Part shown: positions 3,121 through 15,731 of the stretch, piece by piece | How positions within the stretch are numbered: the first letter of the stretch is position 1 | Layout of the letters: every line of letters begins with the position of its first letter | Assembly (NCBI GenBank): GCA_965199855.1 | Contig: OZ241326.1 | Location: 704,001-768,000 of the forward strand | DNA length: 64,000 nt | Reading direction: 5' to 3' | Origin: a bacterium | GTDB taxonomy: Bacteria; UBA8248 | Program-made: the position numbers and the translations under genes | The notes under the pieces: model-generated | Database searches by the model: none | The model's input: only the letters and a program-made list of their open reading frames with translations | Told to the model about the DNA's origin: nothing

Positions 3121-4221
3121 TCAGCATCCGCTTTTTCTCCTCCGGGCGATCCGGAGAATCTCCGCCGACGCCAGCGCCTCGTCGTCGGACGCGCCCCCCG
3201 CTATGAGAACCCGCCGCCCCCCGAGGGGGGTGGCCGTGTGAAGCCGCCGGGGAGACTTCATCGCGCCCGCCGCCAGCCAGAAGCAGCGCCTTTCGGGCTC
3301 GAACACCTCCGCGCTGTCCAGGGTGCGGCCCTCGCCCCCCCAGCCCCCGATGAGCGCGACCCTGCCGTCCGCGAGCAGGGCGGCGGCGTGCTGCTGCCTC
3401 CGCACGCGCAGCCCGCTTTCGAGCGGGATGAATTTTTCCGTTTCGGGGTCGAAAATCTCGGCGCTCGCGAGGGTCCCCTCCCGCCCCAGGCCGCCCGCGA
3501 TGAGTACCTTCCCGTCTTTCAGCCGCGTGGCGGTGTGCCGGCTCCTTTGCGCCGCCAGGCTCCGCGCGAGGCGCGTTCTTCTCCGCGCGGGCAGGTAGAG
3601 CTCCGCGTATCGCGCCACCTTCCCCTCCGCGCCGCCCGCGAGGAGGACGCGCCCGTCCTCGAGCCGCGTGGCGGTGTGCTGCTGCCGCGCCGCGAGCATG
3701 GGCCGCCCGGCGGGAGCGAAGCGCCCCCGCGCGGCCTCGTAGATTTCCAGATGGCGAACCGCGCGCCTGCCGTCGTTGCCGCCGGCGATGAGCGCGTCTC
3801 CCGAGAGAAGCCGCGTCGCCGTGTGATCGTAGCGCCCGCGCCCCATCACGGCGCGCGCGGGGGGCGCGCCGCCGCCCCGGATGAGCAGGGAATCCCGGAG
3901 CGCCTCGCCGACCCTCGCCCAGCCCCCGGTGATCAAAACGCCGCCCTCGAGGAGGACGGCCGCGTGCCAGCCGCGGGCGGGCGCGTTCGGAACGGGGCGG
4001 GGCGCGAACGCTCCCCGCGCGGGGTCGTATGTCTCGAAGCTGCCGAGCGGGGAGGTTTTCGTGAGGCCCGCGGCGATGAGGATTTTCCCCGATGCGAGCC
4101 TCGTGGCCGTGTGTCCGTGTCGGGGGGCGCCCATGCTTCCCGCCGGGGAGAAGTCCCCCTCGCCGCCGCAGGCGGAAAGCGCCGCGCCGAGCAGAAGGCG
4201 CAGGGCCGTTCGCCGCATCAT
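3121..4221 (-). CDS. Kelch-repeat (beta-propeller) lipoprotein
   Basis: AAGGAGG upstream of ATG 4221; lipobox LSAC; about seven R..HTAT.L..G.VLIAGG....E.Y/FDP repeats. Confidence 0.88.
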   Translation of the reverse strand: MMRRTALRLLLGAALSACGGEGDFSPAGSMGAPRHGHTATRLASGKILIAAGLTKTSPLGSFETYDPARGAFAPRPVPNAPARGWHAAVLLEGGVLITGGWARVGEALRDSLLIRGGGAPPARAVMGRGRYDHTATRLLSGDALIAGGNDGRRAVRHLEIYEAARGRFAPAGRPMLAARQQHTATRLEDGRVLLAGGAEGKVARYAELYLPARRRTRLARSLAAQRSRHTATRLKDGKVLIAGGLGREGTLASAEIFDPETEKFIPLESGLRVRRQQHAAALLADGRVALIGGWGGEGRTLDSAEVFEPERRCFWLAAGAMKSPRRLHTATPLGGRRVLIAGGASDDEALASAEILRIARRRKSGC

Positions 4222-4342
4222 CGTTCGCCCCTCCTTCGCGCCGCCCGGAAGAGCGGTCTTCTCGGCGATCCTCCGTGACGCGCTTCTCCCCGCCTCCCGA
4301 AGCCATTTTACGCCAGGAGCCATTATGCGCGAGGCGCGCGAG

Positions 4343-4571
4343 ATGCGAAACGTCTCGGTCATCGGCGGCGGATGCGTGGGCCGGGAGGCGGCGCTCCGGT
4401 TCGCGTGGGCGGGGGGGCGACCTCAGAGAGGCCAAGGGGAGCAGCCTGCCGCTTCGGGCGGACGTGTTCGCGTGGGATTCCATCCCCGAGCGCCTCCGAT
4501 CGGAGATCGCCCCCGACCACGTGGCGCCGGCGGAGGGGGCGAGGGCGCGCGCGGGTGAGGCGGAGGGATGA
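4343..4571 (+). pseudogene. chimeric remnant: Rossmann GxGxxG start joined to a minimal nucleotidyltransferase C-terminal fragment
   Basis: MRNVSVIGGGCVGREAALRFAWAG, then a frame change at the G7 run (4411-4417) into DLREAKGSSLPLRADVFAWDSIPERLRSEI. Confidence 0.4.
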
Positions 4572-4595
4572 GGTTCTGGCGCTTGGGGCGGCGGG

Positions 4596-5402
4596 CTATT
4601 CGATAAGTCCGCGGCTTCTTTTGTAGTCCTGAAACGCTTTTCGGTCTCTTTCCGGCAGCGAATGCCCCGGTTGCTTGTCGTGGCACTCCACGCACAGGGC
4701 GCGAAGGTTGCCCCACGAATTATTGGATTTGTCCCCGTTTCTGTGGTGGGCGTGGAGAAACTCGCTGGCTTCTCCCTTCAGCGAAATGCCGCATTCCTCA
4801 CATCGCCATCCCGCCCTGTCGCGGCATATTCGTGAAAATGTCGATTGATGGGACGAGTAAGTATCTACGGGAGCGGTAATGTCCGTATACCGAGGTTTGG
4901 GGGCGATTGCCTTATCATAACTCTCAAAGAATTTCTCCAGGGAAAACTCCTTTTCGCAATAGCCTTGTGAGCGTAAATGGGATAGGCAGTAACCACATAC
5001 CTGCATGGTGATGAGCTTTTCCTTTTCGATAATTTTACCGGAATCCGTAATGTTCGCTACGAATTTTCCGTCCGTCCGGGTCGAGGCGACGTATCGCTTG
5101 TCGAATCGTTCATTCTTTTTCATGTCTTGGATTTTTTCACAATTCGCTACATGGAATTTGTACTTGCCAAAAAACCTGGAGTATTGGTCCCGGATATAGA
5201 CGAGAATCCTGCGGCCTTCGTGAGATAGCGTCCCGTCGCGCTCGACGGTTATCTGACCCGGATCGACGAGCTCTATTCCCTTTCCCGCCAGTTCGATGTC
5301 CAGTTCTTCCCATTCCATCGAATCGTTGCCCTTGACCAGTTCTTCGACTCCCATTTTGCGAAGAACATCGTCGAGCGCGGCGAACGAAACCTCGATTTTC
5401 AT
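4596..5402 (-). CDS. zorE: HNH endonuclease, ZorE-like effector of a Zorya type II-like system
   Basis: ATG overlaps the zorB stop (ATGA, 5399-5402); C-terminal WRCEECG...LHAHHRNGDKSNN..NLRALCVECH HNH motif. Confidence 0.7.
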   Translation of the reverse strand: MKIEVSFAALDDVLRKMGVEELVKGNDSMEWEELDIELAGKGIELVDPGQITVERDGTLSHEGRRILVYIRDQYSRFFGKYKFHVANCEKIQDMKKNERFDKRYVASTRTDGKFVANITDSGKIIEKEKLITMQVCGYCLSHLRSQGYCEKEFSLEKFFESYDKAIAPKPRYTDITAPVDTYSSHQSTFSRICRDRAGWRCEECGISLKGEASEFLHAHHRNGDKSNNSWGNLRALCVECHDKQPGHSLPERDRKAFQDYKRSRGLIE

Positions 5403-6109
5403 GGTCTGTTTTTCCGATCGATGATCTGGACGATTCTTTTTTCCGCGTTCGTTCGCACGCGAAACTCCACCCGTCTCGATTTTTCCCGGTTCTCGCGGCC
5501 ATTCTCGAGCACCGGCTTGCTGGAGGAGAGGCCGTTCGCGGTGAGCCTTCCCTTGAGCCACGCGAAATCCGGGGATACCGCGTTCAGGTTCAGGACGTAT
5601 TCGAGAACGGCCCTCGTCCGTTGCTGGGAGAGCGCCATGTTGTTGAAGTAGGCGACCTTCGGATCGGCGAGAGTCGCCCATTCGCTGGAGGTATGGCCTT
5701 CGACGCGCACCTCCTCGATGTCGGCCTTGTATTTCGGGCCGGTGAGAATCTTCACGTATCTGGGGAAAAAGTCTATGAGAATGTTCTGGAATTTCTCCTT
5801 CATCGCGGCTTTCCCCTGCTCGAAAAGCACCTCGGGCTCCCGGAAGGTGATGGAGAGCGTTTCGCGGCGGATTTCCGCGGCCCACTTCGGCAGGTCGTCC
5901 CTGAACTCGCGCTTCAAGTCCTCATACAAATCGTTCTGCAGGCGGCTGTAGGTGACAGCGATTCCCTCGATGCTGTCCTTGTCCGCCTGCACCGTCGCCA
6001 TGAAGATGACGGTGAGGAACATGAATATCATCATGGTCCCGGACATGACGTCCGAGATGGAAATCCACGGCCCTTCGCTTTCCTCTTGGAGCGATTCGGC
6101 TTCCTGCAC
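5399..6109 (-). CDS. zorB: OmpA/MotB-family protein, ZorB-like
   Basis: N-terminal TM PWISISDVMSGTMMIF with the conserved Asp; OmpA-like domain with EGHTSSEW, NMALSQQR, SRRVEFRV. Confidence 0.85.
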   Translation of the reverse strand: MQEAESLQEESEGPWISISDVMSGTMMIFMFLTVIFMATVQADKDSIEGIAVTYSRLQNDLYEDLKREFRDDLPKWAAEIRRETLSITFREPEVLFEQGKAAMKEKFQNILIDFFPRYVKILTGPKYKADIEEVRVEGHTSSEWATLADPKVAYFNNMALSQQRTRAVLEYVLNLNAVSPDFAWLKGRLTANGLSSSKPVLENGRENREKSRRVEFRVRTNAEKRIVQIIDRKNRP

Positions 6110-6116
6110 GGTCTGC

Positions 6117-7571
6117 CTACCTTTTGATGATATTCTGCGCGCGGTTCAAGGCGTCCGCCAAAGGCGTGTAATCACTGGCGAATTTCTCCGATATGCTCGC
6201 CAGCCTGTCGCCGAGCGCGGCCAGCGCTTTCGTCAATTCTTCCCCCAGCCCTTCATCTATCGCCTTCATTCGCGCTTCGGTGTTCCGCGCGCTTTCTCCC
6301 GCCAGCCGGGTGATTTCCCGCTCCGTTTTCGTGAAAGTATCTCTCACCTGGGCGTCCAGTCGCTCGACCAGATCCGCGACGAGTTTTTGCTGCTGCTCCG
6401 TGGCGTTGCTCACCTGCGCCCGCATCCGTTCCATGCTTTGTCTGGATAATGCGCCGACCTGCTCGATAGCTCCCGATGCCGTTTTATCCAGTTCGGAGAA
6501 TCCGGCAATCACTTTTTGAGCGAAGTCCTTTTGCTTGCTCAAGGATTCCTGGTTCGCTTCCACCGCTCCCCGCACGGATTCGGCGAAATTCTCCGTGAGT
6601 TCGCTTATCTTCGCGTCAAGCGCGGGCAAGAGCTCCTGCGCCTTTTCCGACATGTCAGCGAACTCTCTCAAATAGCCTTCCATGTATTGTCTTTGTTCCT
6701 GAATGGCGGTCAGGATGGGGTCGAGCTTCTCCGCCGCCTCGGTGATGGCCTCGCTCCGCTCCGCCATTTGCGACAGGGAAGCCTGCGTTCGCGCGATGGA
6801 TTCCCGGACCTGATCGATGCCGGCGACCGCCCTGTCGAACTGCTCTATCATCCTTTCCGTTTGCTCCTTGTTCTTGTCCTGCCAGCCGACGAGGGCTCCG
6901 ACCGCCTCGTTGAGCTGCTTGAAGTTGTCTCCGAACTGCTCGTTTATCTTCGCGTTGAAGTCGCGCATCACCTCTTCGAGAGCCTCGATGAGCTTCTGGC
7001 TGTTCGCCTCCGCCATGGTTTCAGCGAAATCCCTGAACTCCCGGATGAGCTCGTCCTGCTTGTCCGTGAAGGTGGTTCGCAGTTTCTGGATCTGGGTGAG
7101 CATGGAAGTATCGCCCTCGCCCGAAACCGACGCGCGGATGCTCTCCAGCCTTTCCAGCGTTTTCTCGTGGTTTGCTTTTCCTGTTTCGATCTGTTGGTGC
7201 AGGAAGTCCGCGAGGGTTTGAACGGTAGCCCCTTCCGGGCGATCTTCTGATGGCTCCCTGACGATGCGGGGGAACATGACGGGGAGGGTTCTCGTGGCCA
7301 GGGTCGCCACGATGCCGACTATGGAAGTGATGAACGCCGTTTGCAGGCCGAAAAGGAGCGTTCGGACGCTTTTTTCGATGTCGTCGGGATTGAAGTCGAA
7401 CAGGCCGATGGAGATGCCTATGAACGTTCCGACGATTCCAAGAACGGTAGTCGTCGATTGTGAAAATTTATGGAGTTTTCTTTCTCGGATACATTTGAAG
7501 AAACAAGCGGCGATTAACGCGCAAATCACCAGTATAACGGGGTCATAGACAGAGCGAAGCAGAATATCCAT
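6117..7571 (-). CDS. zorA: MotA/TolQ/ExbB-type membrane protein with long coiled-coil tail, ZorA-like
   Basis: Three TM segments including TVLGIVGTFIGISIGL and GLQTAFITSIVG, then a long helical tail (FNAKINEQFGDNFKQLNEAV). Confidence 0.85.
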   Translation of the reverse strand: MDILLRSVYDPVILVICALIAACFFKCIRERKLHKFSQSTTTVLGIVGTFIGISIGLFDFNPDDIEKSVRTLLFGLQTAFITSIVGIVATLATRTLPVMFPRIVREPSEDRPEGATVQTLADFLHQQIETGKANHEKTLERLESIRASVSGEGDTSMLTQIQKLRTTFTDKQDELIREFRDFAETMAEANSQKLIEALEEVMRDFNAKINEQFGDNFKQLNEAVGALVGWQDKNKEQTERMIEQFDRAVAGIDQVRESIARTQASLSQMAERSEAITEAAEKLDPILTAIQEQRQYMEGYLREFADMSEKAQELLPALDAKISELTENFAESVRGAVEANQESLSKQKDFAQKVIAGFSELDKTASGAIEQVGALSRQSMERMRAQVSNATEQQQKLVADLVERLDAQVRDTFTKTEREITRLAGESARNTEARMKAIDEGLGEELTKALAALGDRLASISEKFASDYTPLADALNRAQNIIKR

Positions 7572-7670
7572 GGGCGGCCAGCTTCCTTTTGCCGTGTTCG
7601 CGTATTTCAGTAGAACGTCGTCAGGCTAGCATTCGCCCAGGCTTTTGTCATTTTGTCCGCGTCCGCCCCC

Positions 7671-8237
7671 CTACCTCCTCGGGTGGTGGTCGATGCCCTT
7701 GAAGGTCTCGATGAAGCCCGTGACGCGCGCCTCGTCGAACGTCTCCAGGGTGTCGATTCTCCCCCAGGCGGTGAGGGCGATGCGGTGCTTCATGGAGGGA
7801 TAGGGAGCGAGGACGACGAACTTCGGATAGCGGCGCACGATGCCCTCGAGCTTCTCCACGAGGTCGGGGCAGTCGCCGCAGTTGTATTGAACGAGGACGC
7901 CGCCGTCCTCCAGGTTGTGCACCTGAAAGCCGCGGGCGATGGGCTTCTCGTGCACGCCCCAGCGGACGATGGTCGGGTAGTGCGGCCCCGATGTCGGGGG
8001 GTCGGTGTTGTAGGCGACGGCGCCGCTCGCGCCGACCGGAATGTGGCGGTTGCCGAGGGAGGGGACGGCGCGCGCCTGGTTCGCCGGCGCGCCCGAGAAG
8101 TGCCAGACGCCGAAGAGGAGGGCGACCAGGGCGCTCGCCCAGATGAGCGGGGACGCGCCGTTGCTCTTGGAGCCGATGGCGGCCCGGCGGGCCCTGGCGG
8201 GCCGGGATTTTTTCCTCTTTCCGGGCTTGCGGGCCAT
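7671..8237 (-). CDS. DUF3105-like membrane-anchored protein
   Basis: Basic N-terminus and one TM; YNTDPPTSGPHY, VHNLEDGGVLVQYNC, IALTAWGR motifs. Confidence 0.85.
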   Translation of the reverse strand: MARKPGKRKKSRPARARRAAIGSKSNGASPLIWASALVALLFGVWHFSGAPANQARAVPSLGNRHIPVGASGAVAYNTDPPTSGPHYPTIVRWGVHEKPIARGFQVHNLEDGGVLVQYNCGDCPDLVEKLEGIVRRYPKFVVLAPYPSMKHRIALTAWGRIDTLETFDEARVTGFIETFKGIDHHPRR

Positions 8238-8460
8238 GGCGCGGCCTCCTTGCTTTTCCTGAGGTTCTGCGGATGGCGGCGCGTCGGCAAGATACGCGAG
8301 GAAGGCCGCGGGGACAACCGGAGGGCGCGGGCGTCCCGAATCGTTGACAACTCCCGCGGTGGACGATGATAATCCCCGACCGACGCCCGCGGGGGACCCG
8401 GGCGCGGCTCGCCGCCCCCGTGCGACTCGATGAATCTCCCGCCGGATGGAGGGAAGCCGC

Positions 8461-10233
8461 ATGGCCGCCGAGGATTCCGAAGCGCCGTCGGGCGTTCGCT
8501 ACGAGCCCGACGAGAAGCCGCCCGCCCCGCTCGCCGTCGGCCTGGGCCTGCAGCTCGCCCTCCTCAACGTCGCCGGCGTGGTGCTGACGCCCGCCATCGT
8601 GGTGCGCGCCGGGGGCGGAACCGAGGCGTTCCTCTCCTGGGCGGTGTTCGCGGCGGTGGCGGTCTGCGGCCTGACGACGGCGCTTCAGGCGCGCCGGCTG
8701 GGGAGAATCGGCGCGGGCTACGTGCTCCTCATGGGCACCTCCGGCGCCTTCATCGCGGTCTGCATCGCCGCGCTCGCACAGGGCGGCCCGCCGATGCTCG
8801 CCACGCTCGTGGTCGTCTCCTCGCTCTTCCAGTTCGCGCTCGCGGCGCGGCTCTCGCTGTTCCGGCGCGTCCTGACGCCGACGGTGGCGGGCGTGGTGCT
8901 CATGCTGATAGCGGTGACGGTGATGCCGGTCATCTTCGGGATGCTGGAGGACGTCCCCGAGGGAAGCCCGCCCGCCGCCGCCCCCCTGAGCGCGCTGACG
9001 ACCCTGCTCGTCATCACCGGCGTCGCGCTCAAGGCCCGCGGCGCGGCGCGCCTCTGGGCGCCCGTCATCGGCGTCGCGGCGGGCTCGATCGTCGGCGCCT
9101 TCTTCGGCCTCTACGACGCGGGGCGCGTGGCCGGCGCCGCGTGGATGGGGCTGCCCGAGGGGAGCTGGCCGGGCTTCGACCTGGAGTTCGGCCCCGCCTT
9201 CTGGGCGCTCCTTCCCGCCTTCGCGTTCGTGACCCTGGTGGGCGCCATCGAGACGATCGGCGATTCCGTCGCCATCCAGCGCGTCTCCTGGCGCAGGCCC
9301 CGGGCGGTGGACTTCCGCGCGGTGCAGGGCGCCCTGGCCGCGGACGGGACGGGCAACCTGCTCTCCGGCCTGGCGGGGACGATGCCCAACACGACCTATT
9401 CGACGAGCATATCGGTGACCGAGCTCACCGGCGTGGGCGCGCGCGGGGTGGGCGCAGCCGCGGGCGCCGCGTTCCTCGCCATGGCGTTCTCGCCCAAGCT
9501 GATCGCCGTGGTGCTGGCGATTCCGGCCCCGGTCGCCGCGGCCTACCTCGCCGTGCTGCTGGCGATGCTCTTCACGGTCGGCATGAAGGTGGTCGTCCAG
9601 GACGGGCTCGACTACCGCAAGGGGCTGGTGGCCGGCGTCGCCTTCTGGATCGGCGTGGGCTTTCAGAACGGGGCGATATTCCCCGGCTACTTCCCGGAGT
9701 TCCTGGGCGCGCTCCTCAAGAACGGGATGACGGCGGGCGGCCTGGCGGCCGTCCTGATGACCCTGTTCCTGGAGGCGGCCGAGCCCGGGCGCGCGCGCAT
9801 CGAGACGGCCTTCGAGACCGCCGCGCTGCCGAAGATACGGGAGTTCCTCGGCGCGTTCGCCTCGCGCAGCGGCTGGGACGAGGCGATGGCGAGCCGCCTC
9901 GAGGCGGCCAGCGAGGAGACCCTGCTGACGCTCATGCGCGGGGAGGAGGCGCGGCGGGCGCCCGGGCGGCGCCTGCTGCTGATCGCGCGCAGGGAGGAGG
10001 GGGGCGCGACGCTCGAATTCGTCGTTGCGAGCGGGGAGGCGAACCTCCAGGACAGAATCGCGCTCCTCGGCGAGCGGACGGCCGGCGCGCCGCCCTACGC
10101 GGAGGCGTCGCTCCGGCTGCTGCGGCGCTTCGCCTCCTCGGTTCGCCACCAGCAGTACCACGACGCGGACATCGTGATCCTCCGCGTGGAGCCTCCGGCG
10201 AAGCGCGGCGGCGGGGCGGGAGCGGGGCGGTGA
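8461..10233 (+). CDS. NCS2 (xanthine/uracil permease) family transporter with a C-terminal degenerate RsbW-like HATPase domain
   Basis: RYEPDEKPP start, GTSGAF, TPTVAG, ETIGD, PNTTY; many TM helices, then a soluble tail of about 145 aa. Confidence 0.85.
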   Translation: MAAEDSEAPSGVRYEPDEKPPAPLAVGLGLQLALLNVAGVVLTPAIVVRAGGGTEAFLSWAVFAAVAVCGLTTALQARRLGRIGAGYVLLMGTSGAFIAVCIAALAQGGPPMLATLVVVSSLFQFALAARLSLFRRVLTPTVAGVVLMLIAVTVMPVIFGMLEDVPEGSPPAAAPLSALTTLLVITGVALKARGAARLWAPVIGVAAGSIVGAFFGLYDAGRVAGAAWMGLPEGSWPGFDLEFGPAFWALLPAFAFVTLVGAIETIGDSVAIQRVSWRRPRAVDFRAVQGALAADGTGNLLSGLAGTMPNTTYSTSISVTELTGVGARGVGAAAGAAFLAMAFSPKLIAVVLAIPAPVAAAYLAVLLAMLFTVGMKVVVQDGLDYRKGLVAGVAFWIGVGFQNGAIFPGYFPEFLGALLKNGMTAGGLAAVLMTLFLEAAEPGRARIETAFETAALPKIREFLGAFASRSGWDEAMASRLEAASEETLLTLMRGEEARRAPGRRLLLIARREEGGATLEFVVASGEANLQDRIALLGERTAGAPPYAEASLRLLRRFASSVRHQQYHDADIVILRVEPPAKRGGGAGAGR

Positions 10234-10328
10234 GTTGCGCCCCGCGCGGATTTTTTTATACATTCGGGGAGGCCCGAAGGCGCGGGAGCGCTTTTTCGGG
10301 AATCGGAAGGAAATCGAGGGGCCGATAA

Positions 10329-11495
10329 ATGGAAGAGCCTTACAGGATACTCGTCGTCGACGACGAGCCCGACGTCGAGCAGCTCGTCCTGCAGCGGATG
10401 CGCCGCGAGATTCGCCGCGGCCGCTACGAGTTCGTCTTCGCGCGCAACGGGCTGGAGGCGCTCGAGCGCCTGAAGACGGACGACGAAATCGACATGGTGC
10501 TCACGGACATCAACATGCCGGAGATGGACGGCCTCACGCTGCTCAAGCAGATATCGTCGCTCGATCTGAACCTGCGCTGCGTTGTCGTCTCGGCCTACGG
10601 CGACATGAAGAACATCCGCACGGCGATGAACAGGGGCGCGTTCGACTTCGTCACGAAGCCGATAGACTTCGAGGATCTGAAGATCACCATCGACCGCACC
10701 CTGAGCCACCTGGCCATGCTCCGCGAGGCGCTCGAGGCGCGCGACAAGCTGGTCGCCATCCGGAGCGACCTCGCCCTCGCCAGCAGCATGCAGCAGGCGA
10801 TTCTGCCGACGAAGTTCCCCGAAACCCCGGAATACCAGGTATTCGCGAGCATGGAGGCCGCCCGCGACGTGGGCGGCGACTTCTTCGACGTGATGCGCCT
10901 CTCCGACGGCCTCGTCGGCATCACGGTCGCCGACGTCTCGGGCAAGGGCGTGACCGCCGCCCTCTTCATGATGTCCAGCCGCACCCTGCTCCGCAGCGTC
11001 GCCGTCGCCCGCTCCGACCCCGCCGAGGTGCTGACCGAGGTCAACCGCCTGCTCCAGGAGAACAACGAGGCGGCGATGTTCGTCACCGTCTTCCTCGCGG
11101 TCTTCGACCCGGCGAGCGGGCGGCTCGTCTGCGCGAACGGCGGCCACAACCCCCCGCTCATCGTCCACGCCGACGGAACGTCGAACCTGCTGCCCCAGAA
11201 GCCGGGGGTCGCCCTCGGGGTGGTGCCCGACCTCGCGTATGAGAAGAGCGAGGCGTCCCTCGCCCCCGGCGACGCCATCGTCCTCTACACCGACGGGGTG
11301 ACGGAGGCCGAGAACGCCGCCCAGGAGCAGTTCGGGGTCGAGCGGCTGCGCGGAATCTTCGCGGATTCGCCGCCGGGCGACGCCCGCGAGACGAACACGG
11401 CGGTGTTCCGGGCGGTGCGCGAATTCGCGGGCGACGCGCCGCAGTTCGACGACATCACCTGCCTGACGCTTTACCGCGCCGGAGCGGACGGATGA
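10329..11495 (+). CDS. REC + SpoIIE/PP2C phosphatase (RsbU/RsbY-like)
   Basis: ILVVDDE, LTDINMP and FVTKP receiver motifs; VGGDFFD, ADVSGKG, MFVT, LYTDGVTEA and DDIT phosphatase motifs. Confidence 0.95.
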   Translation: MEEPYRILVVDDEPDVEQLVLQRMRREIRRGRYEFVFARNGLEALERLKTDDEIDMVLTDINMPEMDGLTLLKQISSLDLNLRCVVVSAYGDMKNIRTAMNRGAFDFVTKPIDFEDLKITIDRTLSHLAMLREALEARDKLVAIRSDLALASSMQQAILPTKFPETPEYQVFASMEAARDVGGDFFDVMRLSDGLVGITVADVSGKGVTAALFMMSSRTLLRSVAVARSDPAEVLTEVNRLLQENNEAAMFVTVFLAVFDPASGRLVCANGGHNPPLIVHADGTSNLLPQKPGVALGVVPDLAYEKSEASLAPGDAIVLYTDGVTEAENAAQEQFGVERLRGIFADSPPGDARETNTAVFRAVREFAGDAPQFDDITCLTLYRAGADG

Positions 11496-11914
11496 GCGCG
11501 AGGCTCTCCCTGCGCATGAAGCTGCGCGCCGAGGAGCTCACGCGCGTCGCCGCCGCCGTCTCGGAGTTCGCGGGGGCGCAGGAGTGGCCGCCCGAGATGG
11601 AGTTCCAGATCAATCTCGCGCTCGAGGAGCTGGGGCTCAACATCATCAACCACGGACACGACGACCCCGAGGGACGCGAGGTCGAGTTCGAGATCGTCTC
11701 GGAGGCGGAGTCGGTGACCATCGAGATCGCGGACGACGGCCGGCCGTTCGACCCGATGACCGAGGCGCCCGCGCCGGACACCGAATCGGACATTGAGGAT
11801 CGTCCGGTGGGCGGCCTGGGCGTCCATCTGGTGCGGACGATGATGGACGAGGCGCGCTACAGGCGCGAGGGAGAGAAAAACCGCCTGACCCTCGTCAAGC
11901 GGAGGGTCGAATGA
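11492..11914 (+). CDS. RsbW/SpoIIAB-like anti-sigma factor Ser kinase
   Basis: LALEELGLNIINHG (N box), DDGRPFDP (G1), GGLGVHLVR (G2). Confidence 0.95.
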   Translation: MSARLSLRMKLRAEELTRVAAAVSEFAGAQEWPPEMEFQINLALEELGLNIINHGHDDPEGREVEFEIVSEAESVTIEIADDGRPFDPMTEAPAPDTESDIEDRPVGGLGVHLVRTMMDEARYRREGEKNRLTLVKRRVE

Positions 11915-13092
11915 GCCGCCCGCGCCCCTTCCGCCGCGCGCTTTCGGCTCTTGCGGGCGCGGCGCTCTGCGCGGCGTCGGCCGCGCAGGCGGCCGACGCC
12001 GTCCCGGGCGTTTCCGGAGAGCGCGTTCTCTTCGGCCAGTCCGCCGCCCTGAGCGGCCCCGCCAAGGATCTGGGCGAGAACATGCGGCTCGGCATCGAGG
12101 CCGCCTTCCGGGCGGCGAACGAGAGCGGCGGCGTCCACGGGCGCCGGCTCGAGCTCACCTCCGCCGACGACAGCGGAGAGCCCGAAGCCGCCGTCGCCAA
12201 CACCCGCAGACTCATCGAGGAGGAGAAGGTTTTCGCGCTCATCGGCGCGGTCGGGGCTCCCACCTCGCGCGCGGCCGCGCCGGTCGCCGCCAAGGCGGGC
12301 GCGCCCTACATCGCGCCCTTCACCGGCGCCGCCTTCCTGCGCGATCCCAAATGGAAGAACGTCATCAATCTGCGCGCCTCCTATTTCCAGGAGACCGAGG
12401 AGATGGTCGAGCGCCTGATCGAGGATTTGGGAATCGACCGCATCGCCGTGTTCTACCAGGATGATTCCTTCGGCCTGTCGGGCTACCACGGCGTTCGCCG
12501 CGCCCTCGCGCGGCGCGGCCTGAAGCCCGCGGCCATCGGGGTGTATCCCCGGAACACGACGGCGGTCAAGACGGCCCTGCTCGACCTGCGGCGCCAAAAG
12601 CCGGGCGCGGTCGTCCTCGTCGGTGCCTATCGGCCGGTCGCGGCCCTGATCGCCTGGGCGCGGCACGTGGGGGTGAATCCGGTTTTCGTGACGATCTCCT
12701 TCGTGGGCGGCCGCGCGCTCGTGCGCGAACTCGGCCCCGCCGGCGTGGGGGTCTTCGTCACGCAGGTGGTTCCCTTCCCGACGGCGAAGGATCTCCCGAT
12801 CGCGGCGGCCTACCGCCGGGCGCTGGAGGCTCACGCGCCCGGCGCGCCCCCCGGCTTCGTCTCTTTCGAGGGCTATCTAGCCGGCCGGCTGGCCGTCCGC
12901 GCCCTCGAACTCTGCGGGCGGGAACTCAGGCGTGCCTGCCTTCTCGACAGCCTGCGCCGCGAGGCCGTCATCGACCTGGACGGGTTCAAGCTGCGCTTCG
13001 GGAAGGACGACAACCAGGGTTCGGACGCGGTGTTCCTCACCGTCATCGCCGCGCGGGGGCGCTACCTCCCGATCCGGACGATGAAGCGGTGA
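11911..13092 (+). CDS. periplasmic binding protein (LivJ-like family), with no adjacent ABC permease
   Basis: Signal peptide ending AQA; GQSAALSGPA, GGVHGR.L, VFALIGAVG, RASY..E. Confidence 0.9.
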   Translation: MSRPRPFRRALSALAGAALCAASAAQAADAVPGVSGERVLFGQSAALSGPAKDLGENMRLGIEAAFRAANESGGVHGRRLELTSADDSGEPEAAVANTRRLIEEEKVFALIGAVGAPTSRAAAPVAAKAGAPYIAPFTGAAFLRDPKWKNVINLRASYFQETEEMVERLIEDLGIDRIAVFYQDDSFGLSGYHGVRRALARRGLKPAAIGVYPRNTTAVKTALLDLRRQKPGAVVLVGAYRPVAALIAWARHVGVNPVFVTISFVGGRALVRELGPAGVGVFVTQVVPFPTAKDLPIAAAYRRALEAHAPGAPPGFVSFEGYLAGRLAVRALELCGRELRRACLLDSLRREAVIDLDGFKLRFGKDDNQGSDAVFLTVIAARGRYLPIRTMKR

Positions 13093-15296
13093 GCGGAACC
13101 GTGATCGAATCGCTGAAGCGTCTGCTCCAAAGCCGCTCCCGAATCTCGACGCAGCTCTATCTGGGCATCGGCGGCGCCGTGGTTCTCACCGTCATAGCGA
13201 GCCTGGTGGGCTGGATCTCGTTCGACCGGGTCGGCGACGCCCAGAGCCGCGTGAACGAGTCCAGCGTTCCGCTGCTGGCGTCCGCTTTCCGGGTCGCCGG
13301 GAGAAGCGCCGATCTGGTGGTCGCCGCGCCGCGCCTGGCCGCGGTCGAGGACCCCGACGACCTGGCGCGGATCGCCAGCAGGGTCGAGAAGGATCGGGAG
13401 GTGTTCGAGGCGGAGCTGGGCGCGCTGACGCGCACGGGCGGGGAGGCGGAGCGCTTCAGGCGCATCATCGAGCGGGGAAAGGCGCTGATCGCCAACATCG
13501 AGGCCATCAAGGCTTTGGTGCTCCGGCGCTTCGACCTCCTCGATCTGCGGGATACGCTCAGCCTGGAGCTCACGTGGCTGCGCAAGGAACTGGAGAACAT
13601 CCTGCTCCCCGCGATAGACGATCAGCTCTTCTTCGTGATGACGGGCTACCGCAGCCTGGACGACGGGCCCGCGCCCTGGGAGGAGCACTTCTCGGAGGAG
13701 GAATTCGTCCTTTATCGCTACATGGCCGAACTGCATACCGACGCCGCCATCGGAACGCAGGCTCTGGCGGCCGCCTTCAACGTCCCGGACGCCGCTCTTA
13801 TCGAACCGCTGCGGGAGCGCTTCGAGGCCGTGGTGCGCGGCGTCAGACGCCGCCTGGCCTCGCTTGGAAAGGCGCCCGTGCGGGCCAAGCTCGCGCCCCA
13901 CTTCGACCGGATGATCGAGCTGGGCGTCGGGCGGGCGGGGGGCTTCAACCTGCGCGCGCGCGAGCTGGCGATCTCCGAGCGGCTGCGGGAGCTGCTCTCG
14001 AGCAACGGCGACCTCGCCGTGGACCTCCTGAGCGAGACCGAGAGCCTGGTGAAAGCGGCGCGGGAAAGCGCGCGGGAGGCCACGCTGGCCTCCGGCGAGG
14101 CGATTCGCACCGGGCGAAATCTGCTCCTCTCGCTGAGCTTCGTCAGCGTCGTCGCGGCGGTGCTCATCGCCTGGCTGTTCGTCGGCCGGGTGCTGTCGCG
14201 CCGGCTCGGGCGGCTTTCGGATCGGATGCGCCGCATGGCCGACGGCGACCTGGAGGCGGAGGTAGACATCGGCGGGAGCGACGAGGTCTCGGAGATGGCC
14301 GCCGCGCTCGAGGTGTTCCGCCGCCACGCCCTGGAGGTGCAGCGCCTGAACCTGGTGGAGAAGCTGGCCGATGAGCTCAAGGGCAAGAACGATCAGCTCG
14401 AGAGCACGCTGGGCGAACTCGAGAAGGCGCAGGATCAGATCGTCATGCGCGAGAAGCTGGCGGCGCTCGGCGAACTGACGGCGGGCGTCGCCCACGAGAT
14501 CAGGAATCCGCTGAACTTCATCAAGAATTTTTCGGAAGTCTCCGAGGAGCTGATGGAGGAGCTGCAGGAGGAGCTGGAGAAAGTCCTCGGCGGAGGCGGG
14601 AACGGCTCAGGCGAAGACGGCGGCGGCGGGAGCGGGAACGGGAAGAAGGAGGAGGACGCGGGCGGGCTGATCCGCGAGATCGGCGGCGACCTGACCGAGA
14701 ACCTCAAGCGCATCCGCGAGCACGGCGAGCGCGCCAACAACATCGTGCAGAGCATGCTGATGATGGGCAGGGGCTCGAGCGATCGGCAGCCGACGAACAT
14801 CAATGCCGTGATCTCCGAGCACGCGCGGCTCGCCTACCACAGCGCCCGGGCGGTGGACCCGGATTTCCGCCTCACGATGGAGGAGGAGTTCGACGAGGAC
14901 ATCGGGGAATACGAGGCCATCCCGCAGGATCTGGGCCGCGTCTTCCTGAACATGGTCAGCAACGCCTGCTACGCCACCGACGAGAGGCGGCGCGCGATCG
15001 AGGCCGGGGAAAAGAAGCTGGCGGAGGGCGCGCCGCGCTACGAGCCTCTCCTGCGCCTCGTCACCCGGAGCCTGCCGGATCGCATCGAGGTTCGCGTCCG
15101 CGACAACGGAAGCGGAATGCCGCCGGACGTCATCGAAAAGATATTCAACCCCTTCTTCACGACCAAGCCGACGGACAAGGGCACGGGCCTGGGACTCTCC
15201 CTCTGCAACGACATCGTGCGCGAGCACGGGGGAAGCATCCGGGTCGAATCCGCGCCTGACGAGTTCACGGAGATGATCGTCGAACTGCCCCGGTAG
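13089..15296 (+). CDS. sensor histidine kinase with TorS-like periplasmic domain, HAMP, HisKA and HATPase
   Basis: Two TM segments around a large helical periplasmic domain; H box AGVAHEIRNPLN; N box FLNMVSNA; DNGSG, FNPFFTTK, GTGLGL. Confidence 0.93.
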   Translation: MSGTVIESLKRLLQSRSRISTQLYLGIGGAVVLTVIASLVGWISFDRVGDAQSRVNESSVPLLASAFRVAGRSADLVVAAPRLAAVEDPDDLARIASRVEKDREVFEAELGALTRTGGEAERFRRIIERGKALIANIEAIKALVLRRFDLLDLRDTLSLELTWLRKELENILLPAIDDQLFFVMTGYRSLDDGPAPWEEHFSEEEFVLYRYMAELHTDAAIGTQALAAAFNVPDAALIEPLRERFEAVVRGVRRRLASLGKAPVRAKLAPHFDRMIELGVGRAGGFNLRARELAISERLRELLSSNGDLAVDLLSETESLVKAARESAREATLASGEAIRTGRNLLLSLSFVSVVAAVLIAWLFVGRVLSRRLGRLSDRMRRMADGDLEAEVDIGGSDEVSEMAAALEVFRRHALEVQRLNLVEKLADELKGKNDQLESTLGELEKAQDQIVMREKLAALGELTAGVAHEIRNPLNFIKNFSEVSEELMEELQEELEKVLGGGGNGSGEDGGGGSGNGKKEEDAGGLIREIGGDLTENLKRIREHGERANNIVQSMLMMGRGSSDRQPTNINAVISEHARLAYHSARAVDPDFRLTMEEEFDEDIGEYEAIPQDLGRVFLNMVSNACYATDERRRAIEAGEKKLAEGAPRYEPLLRLVTRSLPDRIEVRVRDNGSGMPPDVIEKIFNPFFTTKPTDKGTGLGLSLCNDIVREHGGSIRVESAPDEFTEMIVELPR

Positions 15297-15392
15297 GCGG
15301 GAAGGCTCCTGCGGATGGGCGCGGGGAGGCCGGGGACGGGAAGGCGCCCCCCGGCCCGAAGCCGCCCCGGGCGGGAGGGCCGCTTCCGCTCC

Positions 15393-15731
15393 TCAGCCGG
15401 CGGTCGCGGCGAGCGCCTCCTCCTTGGTGGCGCGGAGCTGGATGATGTGGTCGAAGCCGGATATCTCGAACACCTCGCGTATCAGATCCCCGAGCGCGTA
15501 TAGCGCGAACTTCGCGTCCCGCTGCCCGAGGTACTTGGCGATCAGCAGGACGGCGCGAAGGCCGGCGCTGCTGATGTAGGAGACGCTCTCGAAATTCACG
15601 ATGACGGCGCGGTCGCTCTCGCCGATCGCCGTCTTTATCGCGTTCTCGAACTCCGGGGCGGTGACGCCGTCAATGCGCCCATCGACCTGGACAACCAGCG
15701 TTCCGTCTTCTCGCTCGATCTTGGTCTCCAT
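15393..15731 (-). CDS. STAS-domain anti-sigma factor antagonist (RsbV/SpoIIAA-like)
   Basis: GRIDG..APEF; YISSAGLR with the phosphorylatable Ser; VFEISGF. ATG at 15731. Confidence 0.95.
   Translation of the reverse strand: METKIEREDGTLVVQVDGRIDGVTAPEFENAIKTAIGESDRAVIVNFESVSYISSAGLRAVLLIAKYLGQRDAKFALYALGDLIREVFEISGFDHIIQLRATKEEALAATAG

Follow-up and report, generated by a model that had tools for sequence, protein, structure and literature searches.

The locus described here lies within a 64,000-nucleotide (nt) stretch of a bacterial genome (GTDB lineage UBA8248; contig OZ241326.1, positions 704,001 to 768,000 of the forward strand), which we refer to in full as the window and whose own numbering is used below. 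At its center are an NCS2-type permease with an RsbW-like C-terminal domain (the tail) and the genes of a partner-switching module. Six genes make up the locus: on the plus strand those for the permease, a REC-PP2C phosphatase, an RsbW-like kinase, a solute-binding protein, and a histidine kinase, and on the minus strand a convergent gene for a STAS protein. Pfam domain matches placed all six where a preliminary description of the sequence had put them. The features are as follows (aa, amino acids).

8344 to 8373, plus strand: promoter-like site of the sigma-70 type upstream of the permease gene (TTGACA, 18-nt spacer, GATAAT; 11 of 12 positions)
8446 to 10233, plus strand: NCS2-type permease with C-terminal RsbW-like tail (595 aa, or 590 aa from an alternative ATG at 8461)
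9790 to 10188, plus strand: RsbW/SpoIIAB-type GHKL domain, catalytically degenerate (permease residues ∼449 to 581)
10222 to 10259, plus strand: terminator-like hairpin over the permease stop codon (8 G-C pairs, 8-nt loop, 4 nt, then 7 T)
10329 to 11495, plus strand: REC-PP2C phosphatase (Response_reg and SpoIIE domains)
11492 to 11914, plus strand: RsbW-like serine kinase (HATPase_c_2, 101 bits; N, G1, and G2 boxes intact)
11911 to 13092, plus strand: secreted solute-binding protein (Peripla_BP_6, Liv/urea type; signal-peptide-like N terminus read from the sequence)
13089 to 15296, plus strand: membrane histidine kinase (TorS_sensor, a TorS-type periplasmic sensor, with HAMP, HisKA, and HATPase_c)
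15393 to 15731, minus strand: single-domain STAS protein of the anti-sigma antagonist type (conserved serine motif; convergent with the histidine kinase gene)

We are highly confident in the identity of these parts. The four downstream plus-strand genes are joined by overlaps of 4 nt (11492 to 11495, 11911 to 11914, and 13089 to 13092). The promoter-like site, a consensus match only, is the sole one of its kind between positions 8000 and 16200, where shuffled sequences average 0.4 matches. The fold energy of the hairpin gives a z-score of just −0.98, which is unremarkable in this GC-rich context (G+C near the finding is ∼68 to 71%). A profile search of the host genome (3.04 Mb, one contig) found four Sigma70_r2 matches and none of them in the window, as expected from the earlier claim that the window lacks a sigma factor.

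What is the C-terminal extension of the permease? No Pfam domain scores over its cut-off on residues ∼449 to 581. The best Pfam match of the window tail alone was HATPase_c_2, which fell below the gathering threshold (14.6 bits versus 27.4; E = 0.034) and ran in register over profile positions 4 to 112 of 127. Among 45 tails drawn from 80 genome loci, 19 matched HATPase_c_2 at E ≤ 1 (best E, 5e-7), and an hhalign comparison of these tails with 24 canonical RsbW-like proteins gave a probability of 93.6% (E = 2e-7; 116 columns). An AlphaFold2 model of the tail (pLDDT, 76.4; pTM, 0.73) has the topology strand-helix-helix-strand-strand-helix-helix-strand-strand. Foldseek comparison of this model with the PDB returned 20 matches at E ≤ 0.001, and all 15 of the matches listed were anti-sigma kinases, namely, UsfX (8ih8 and 8jzt), SpoIIAB (1tid, 1l0o, and 1th8), RsbW (6m36 and 6m37), and the RsbW domain of Rv1364c, with 3ke6 also among the best. 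The best match had an E value of 2e-7 and a probability of 1.00, and TM-scores to UsfX, SpoIIAB, and RsbW were 0.59 to 0.73. Foldseek and hhalign thus agree on the GHKL/RsbW fold that the preliminary description had proposed, with Foldseek as a check. The ESM Atlas gave a weak lead: for the homologue P0009, the top feature was a cluster with HATPase_c_2 in 15% of its members (score, 0.93). The sole result of a tail profile search over PDB sequences was a set of designed armadillo-type repeat proteins, which we judged spurious.

The ATP-binding residues of this fold have been lost from the tail. In the hhalign register, the N-box Asn (RsbW N50) is opposite tail T60 and the G1 Asp (RsbW D81) opposite V92, a position that is Val or Ala across tails; the G2 glycines G107 and G108 fall opposite a gap, and G110 is opposite S120. 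A Glu corresponding to RsbW E46 is retained and conserved in tails. A fold kept with its Asn, Asp, and G2 glycines gone had been read by eye from the sequence, and the profile alignment confirms that reading. As for the by-eye alignment between the tail and the neighboring kinase, hhalign reproduced the register of blocks 1 and 3, and block 2 was off by one residue. A pairwise BLASTP comparison of the two was not significant (E = 2.6), so that the tail as a recent copy of the neighboring kinase can be ruled out; the sequences place the similarity between tail and RsbW at the level of families.

Across 89 permeases, the mean pairwise identity of the tail is close to that of the membrane core (0.53 versus 0.55), and a tail as conserved as the core would be consistent with a conserved binding function. 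Positions conserved at ≥95% in these permeases are F467, R484, L485, E490, E491, L496, L510, E524, F525, N533, S555, R557, L558, L559, H568, Y571, D575, I576, and V581, among which E490, E491, N533, S555, R557, H568, Y571, and D575 form the polar subset.

The membrane part is recognizably NCS2 and departs from characterized members in its signature. Xan_ur_permease (PF00860) matches residues 33 to 406 with 143.3 bits (gathering cut-off, 27); Pfam finds PF00860 only, with neither a Sulfate_transp nor a STAS domain in the permease. Three NCBIfam models fall below their cut-offs: TIGR00801 for the NCS2 superfamily (156 versus 291.8 bits), TIGR03173 for xanthine permease (184 versus 414 bits), and NF037981 (36.5 versus 40 bits). 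The permease aligns with the UapA and UraA structures and retains the Glu of transmembrane helix 8 (TM8). The NAT signature is defined as [Q/E/P]-N-x-G-x-x-x-x-T-[R/K/G] in TM10. It is degenerate here, where UapA TTFAQNNGVIALTR stands against TTYSTSISVTELTG of the window permease. Residue by residue, QNNGVIALTR of UapA is replaced by TSISVTELTG, so the Q, N, and G positions are lost, and the T and the last G still match the motif. Given this degenerate signature, the sequence suggests that the substrate may be other than a nucleobase.

Permeases with this tail form a large family. Of 8000 candidates scored against the tail, 2546 proteins reached E ≤ 1e-3, and 546 representatives at 50% identity match the tail at that threshold. 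PF00860 was the only precomputed Pfam domain on 119 of the 120 proteins listed, and the public names, where given among these 120, were "purine/pyrimidine permease" or "hypothetical protein." Full-length members have ∼575 to 595 aa with the tail at ∼430 to 580, and many shorter entries look like fragments. In species-representative genomes, 88 stretches encode relatives, of which we used the best 80, all from metagenome-assembled genomes; their titles name Nitrospinota, Latescibacterota, Dehalococcoidia, Alpha- and Gammaproteobacteria, Binatia, Acidobacteriota, Gemmatimonadota, Tectimicrobiota, or plain "bacterium." Genomes carry one to seven tailed copies, some as tandem or near pairs of paralogs (L032:10001-12400, which is G006:C1:1299936-1302343; L123; and G061:C1:972593-974907; L and G numbers are our designations for loci and genomes). 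A search of the full-text literature, with subscription journals and supplements outside its reach, found no description of a carrier, NCS2 or other, with a fused RsbW-like domain. The permease with a dead RsbW-like domain is a real architecture for which we found no description.

The remaining five genes form a complete partner-switching set, as the preliminary description had it: a PP2C phosphatase, an intact HATPase_c_2 kinase, and a STAS protein with its conserved serine are all present. The kinase is intact at N50, D81, G108, and G110. The STAS protein scores 72 bits against TIGR00377 (cut-off, 53); its SYISSAGLR motif is invariant, as are S54 and S55 in 15 orthologues, and from these residues it is predicted to be phosphorylatable. 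REC-PP2C is the only SpoIIE-family gene of the genome, and its closest NCBIfam model is RssB of the Pseudomonas type, with a score under the cut-off. The histidine kinase matches TorS_sensor with 31.5 bits (cut-off, 27) and TIGR02956 over residues 22 to 441, the latter under its cut-off. It is plausible, by analogy, that the binding protein signals to this kinase, because the sensor domain is TorS-like and the cluster holds no ABC partner genes for the binding protein. Beyond the single SpoIIE-type phosphatase gene, the host genome has two STAS genes, one tailed permease, two HATPase_c_2 genes above the cut-off, four sigma-70-family factors, and three ammonium transporter (Amt) genes, the closest ∼72 kb from the module. 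The second HATPase_c_2 domain (L131:1692-3209, minus strand) is the N terminus of a 505-aa protein whose other ∼350 residues lack a Pfam match, and the second STAS gene (L132:3303-3641, minus strand; 112 aa) is isolated amid metabolic genes.

The set of STAS, REC-PP2C, RsbW-like kinase, binding protein, and histidine kinase is a conserved cassette across phyla, with proteins mostly ∼45 to 75% identical to those of the window. When loci were fetched around canonical kinases, 11 of 12, from several phyla, held the cassette, 10 of these with STAS. No cognate sigma factor or other defined target accompanies the cassette in the window, and open reading frame (ORF) clustering over 31 module loci yielded no conserved extra regulator gene. 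In one alphaproteobacterial locus that has the gene order of the window without the permease (L125:7142-9754), a Mutator-family and an IS481-like transposase gene lie just upstream of REC-PP2C, consistent with a mobile cassette. It is well supported that the cassette is a self-contained signaling unit that moves between phyla and tends to adjoin genes for the uptake of nitrogenous solutes. Seven loci (L113 [8025-11860], L114, L115, L101, L104, L105, and L129) have next to the cassette a gene with an Alpha-E domain and one for a circularly permuted ATP-grasp protein.

Do the tail and the module belong together? We took 10 kb as the limit of adjacency and a REC-PP2C match as the marker of the module in genomes. 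Searches with the window proteins (tblastn) placed REC-PP2C near the tailed permease in 11 of the 80 loci (L001 to L007, L009 to L011, and L079) and STAS in 9, the one in L050 being unrelated. REC-PP2C was present at E ≤ 1e-60 in 69 of 75 tail-bearing genomes, two of them doubtful (G003, where a 712-aa frame is 40% identical, and G041, with a match to the REC part only). The G003 frame (G003:C1:2951074-2952609) encodes a PP2C and lies with a canonical HATPase_c_2 gene 12 kb from the tailed permease of L025. A hand tally of coordinates in the 50 genomes with both on one contig found tail and REC-PP2C within 10 kb in 15. Ten of these belong to the lineage of the window, and the others are G008, G055, G057, G014, and G071; outside that lineage, adjacency was thus seen in 5 of 40 genomes versus a rough chance expectation of ∼0.6. 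An even sample of 401 Dehalococcoidia genomes contained 65 with both, 7 with the tail only, 9 with the module only, and 320 with neither (odds ratio of 330, phylogeny ignored), and in at least 8 of the 65 the tail and the module lie within 10 kb. Among 401 Alphaproteobacteria, 3 had both (one being the center genome), 7 the tail only, 6 the module only, and 385 neither (Fisher P = 9e-4, or 0.012 without the center genome; phylogeny ignored). Five of the six module-only alphaproteobacterial loci have the whole cassette, with identities up to ∼74%, and the sixth (L130) has just REC-PP2C and partial kinase matches.

Some cassette loci in other phyla adjoin a second, more divergent tailed permease, and for this reason we dropped our initial reading that the rsb association is limited to the lineage of the window. 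Permease and module occur in six gene orders, which involve different permease paralogs.

Order a1 (L102 and L122): all on one strand, STAS, REC-PP2C, RsbW, binding protein, histidine kinase, permease
Order a2 (L113 to L115): STAS, REC-PP2C, RsbW, then three opposite-strand genes (Alpha-E, Amt, and ATP-grasp), then the permease
Order b (L116 to L119): permease convergent with histidine kinase, binding protein, RsbW, REC-PP2C
Order c (L106, L120, and L121; Latescibacterota): permease divergent, 4.8 kb from STAS
Order d (window): the arrangement of the window itself
Order e (L079): divergent, ∼6 kb apart

On a FastTree phylogeny of 89 permeases, the near-module label needs seven changes, at least five of which are forced by well-supported branches; shuffled labels need 19.1 changes on average, and none of 500 shuffles was as low as observed. 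The tree sample was enriched on purpose with 13 near-module paralogs; the tree therefore shows polyphyly, not frequency, which lessens its weight for a general link. In a sister lineage (L003, L004, L005, L006, L007, and L009), a gap of 1.3 to 2.7 kb separates the permease from REC-PP2C. It holds an extra stand-alone receiver gene, a frame of ∼155 aa with 76% identity to the REC part (e.g., G019:C1:1908541-1908960), and the other ORFs tested in it had no Pfam match. Taken together, the evidence on tail-module co-occurrence is mixed. The earlier expectation that the fusion would accompany rsb-like genes elsewhere held in that genome-level co-occurrence is strong and adjacency recurs in six gene orders, and it failed at the 69 of 80 loci that have no rsb gene within 10 kb.

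Other transporters also stand beside the module. Amt genes were found at the following places.

L103, L104, L105, L106, L113 to L115, L120, L121, L125, L126, L128, and L129: plain Amt immediately adjacent to the cassette, at its STAS or its kinase end

These Amt proteins bear no RsbW-like tail: in all eight checked, the Pfam domain stops 2 to 13 residues before the C terminus. A tail-less NCS2 protein of 484 aa (L129:1560-3014; PF00860, 280 bits) is encoded ∼2.7 kb beyond the histidine kinase gene, and an NCS2 core match of 30% identity, its length unchecked, has the same position in L105 (1543-2769). In L106, a Na:alanine symporter gene lies between the permease and the module. Whether adjacency prefers tailed over plain NCS2 was examined in five genomes, where almost every NCS2 gene bears the tail (17 of 18 matches with frames of ≥580 aa, one fragment counted). 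Module adjacency therefore cannot single out the tail, and we set that idea aside. Upstream of the locus, at positions 4001 to 8000 of the window, G+C falls to 58.7% versus ∼68 to 71% on both sides; the ORFs there encode an OmpA-family protein, a DUF3105 protein, and a 484-aa product with a sub-threshold apolipoprotein-like repeat match.

How might these parts work together? In the reading that we prefer, the binding protein would signal the presence of an external solute, probably a nitrogenous one, to the histidine kinase, and the latter would control how active REC-PP2C is. The phosphorylation state of STAS would depend jointly on this phosphatase and the RsbW-like kinase. One STAS state, or the RsbW kinase itself, would then dock on the permease at its dead RsbW-like tail, likewise on paralogs where a genome has several, and alter transport activity without a transcription step. 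The docking step is drawn from the fold, the recurrent gene adjacency, and the co-occurrence; it would account for the retention of exactly this fold in a carrier family and for the recurring adjacency. That the STAS protein or kinase of the cassette docks on the tail and controls transport is a possibility that we advance tentatively. More doubtful is the wider proposal that one mobile cassette sets, through STAS docking, the activity of all one to seven tailed permeases of a cell. Phospho-STAS is a possible ligand, because Glu, Asn, Ser, Arg, and His are retained in the remodeled pocket.

Several observations weigh against docking. The window permease ends in its own terminator-like hairpin, set apart from the downstream genes, and most tailed paralogs sit elsewhere in the genome, away from the module. 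Of the 80 loci with the closest tails, 69 have no match to REC-PP2C, RsbW, the binding protein, or the histidine kinase within 10 kb, and ORF clustering found no non-permease gene common to more than 17 of 81 loci; in other lineages, the neighbors of the permease are unrelated enzymes. Among the Alphaproteobacteria, the module is missing from 7 of 10 genomes with the tail, and a tailed permease is missing from 6 of 9 genomes with the module. Each of tail and module thus occurs without the other, and docking would be obligatory for neither. The co-occurrence statistics are uncorrected for phylogeny or shared habitat. Every small STAS in 25 genomes is matched by a canonical HATPase_c_2 kinase of its own, and the locus permease is far from any STAS in 22 of these genomes; in the remaining 3, all from the lineage of the window, STAS and kinase genes lie within 10 kb of it. 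We had also considered that the tail might be the sole partner of an orphan STAS, and we rejected this since canonical HATPase_c_2 genes are present in each of the 25, mostly beside STAS. The commonest module neighbor in the ORF clustering is the ammonium transporter (13 of 31 loci, in three phyla), which adjoins the module in 8 of 16 loci not selected for permease adjacency, and the canonical NCS2 proteins near the module in L105 and L129 are tail-less.

Much of this would follow if the tail were an autonomous cytoplasmic domain with no partner in the module, one that holds the carrier dimer together or senses, through the remodeled nucleotide pocket, a small cytoplasmic ligand, as STAS does in SLC26/SulP, with module adjacency reflecting a shared, horizontally exchanged gene pool. 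The family mostly stands alone (546 clusters, the great majority of loci without rsb genes, and no conserved neighbor), tail-bearing genomes without the module exist, and transposase genes flank the module in L125. The conserved polar residues, as mapped through the hhalign register, probably fall on elements that line the GHKL ATP pocket. An exchanged gene pool accounts poorly for the recurrent adjacency, seen with different paralogs and in six gene orders, and for the strong co-occurrence; we regard an autonomous tail as rather doubtful. The link could instead be one of theme and not of contact: the cassette would sense nitrogenous nutrients and act elsewhere, on a distant sigma or other factor or in an RssB-like adaptor role, and would tend to adjoin uptake genes for nitrogen compounds, tailed or not. 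The plain ammonium transporters, the tail-less NCS2 genes, the Na:alanine symporter of L106, the Liv/urea type of the binding protein, and the RssB model (under its cut-off) as the closest to REC-PP2C are all in keeping with such a link, as is an adjacency that is not tail-specific where nearly all NCS2 genes are tailed. A purely thematic link is nonetheless unlikely: the module likewise lacks a conserved output gene as its neighbor, and such a link leaves unexplained why a carrier family bears a dead copy of exactly the STAS-binding fold.

The same fold and adjacency evidence that points to docking would also serve a transceptor working in the reverse direction, in which a substrate-dependent shape of the carrier exposes the tail, the tail captures STAS or heterodimerizes with the RsbW-like kinase, and transport status feeds into the partner switch. 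The degenerate NAT signature fits sensing more than bulk uptake. RsbW-type proteins function as dimers, and a heterodimer is therefore conceivable. The module already has a sensor of its own in the binding protein and kinase, and the same exceptions to co-occurrence apply, which makes a transceptor quite improbable. The docking reading shares those exceptions; the recurrence of the adjacency in different gene orders and the nature of the fold are what it would explain.

How does this architecture compare with known systems? The tail resembles RsbW, SpoIIAB, and UsfX (HATPase_c_2, GHKL superfamily) in fold, secondary-structure order, profile register, and the N-box Glu. Unlike them, it is fused to the C terminus of a carrier of the 14-transmembrane-helix type, has lost the ATP motifs, scores under the Pfam cut-off, and has invariant motifs of its own (SLRLL, H-x-x-Y, and D-I). 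The permease is like the NAT/NCS2 carriers (UraA, UapA, and XanQ/PbuX; PF00860) in its Pfam match, structure alignment, and TM8 Glu; it differs in that Q/E-N-x-G has become T-S-I-S, the TIGR models fall under their cut-offs, and a tail of ∼150 aa is added.

In the Bacillus cereus RsbK-RsbY-RsbV-RsbW-sigmaB pathway, a histidine kinase acts on a REC-PP2C phosphatase and this in turn on a STAS/RsbW pair. The cassette has the same chain of histidine kinase, REC-PP2C, and STAS/RsbW, whereas it lacks an adjoining sigma B-type gene, has a TorS-type sensor and an orphan binding protein, and is found in many phyla. In TorT-TorS, a binding protein signals to a histidine kinase; the window kinase is alike in its TorS_sensor domain and in the binding-protein gene that overlaps its start. 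The binding protein is, in contrast, of the Peripla_BP_6 family and not TorT, the kinase is non-hybrid, without REC or HPt, and the coupling between the two is one that we infer. Partner switching is the textbook route of sigma-factor control, and a few systems act through unknown outputs other than sigma factors. If the docking reading is true, the output of a partner switch would be a transporter family and not a sigma factor.

The STAS-only systems SypA/SypE, BtrV/BtrW/BtrU, and RbaV have STAS outputs on non-sigma or unknown targets, and none is reported to act on a transporter with a dead kinase domain in the accessible part of a STAS review, the text of which, to that extent, does not contain the word "permease" (PMC8256260). 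A closer structural parallel is offered by the SLC26/SulP carriers. Like the window permease, these are 7+7 inverted-repeat carriers with a cytoplasmic C-terminal domain from the partner-switching toolkit, and the SLC26 architecture is described as common with SLC23/NCS2 (PMC6497670). The difference is that the fused domain of the window permease is the kinase-side fold and STAS is a separate small protein. If our reading holds, a carrier that captured the kinase-side fold would give a partner switch a direct posttranslational handle on transport, in a family of hundreds of clusters that is publicly annotated as permease only. Such a carrier would be the mirror image of the SLC26 carriers, which bear the STAS half of the same pair, and would suggest why STAS-type and RsbW-type domains both occur on 7+7 carriers.

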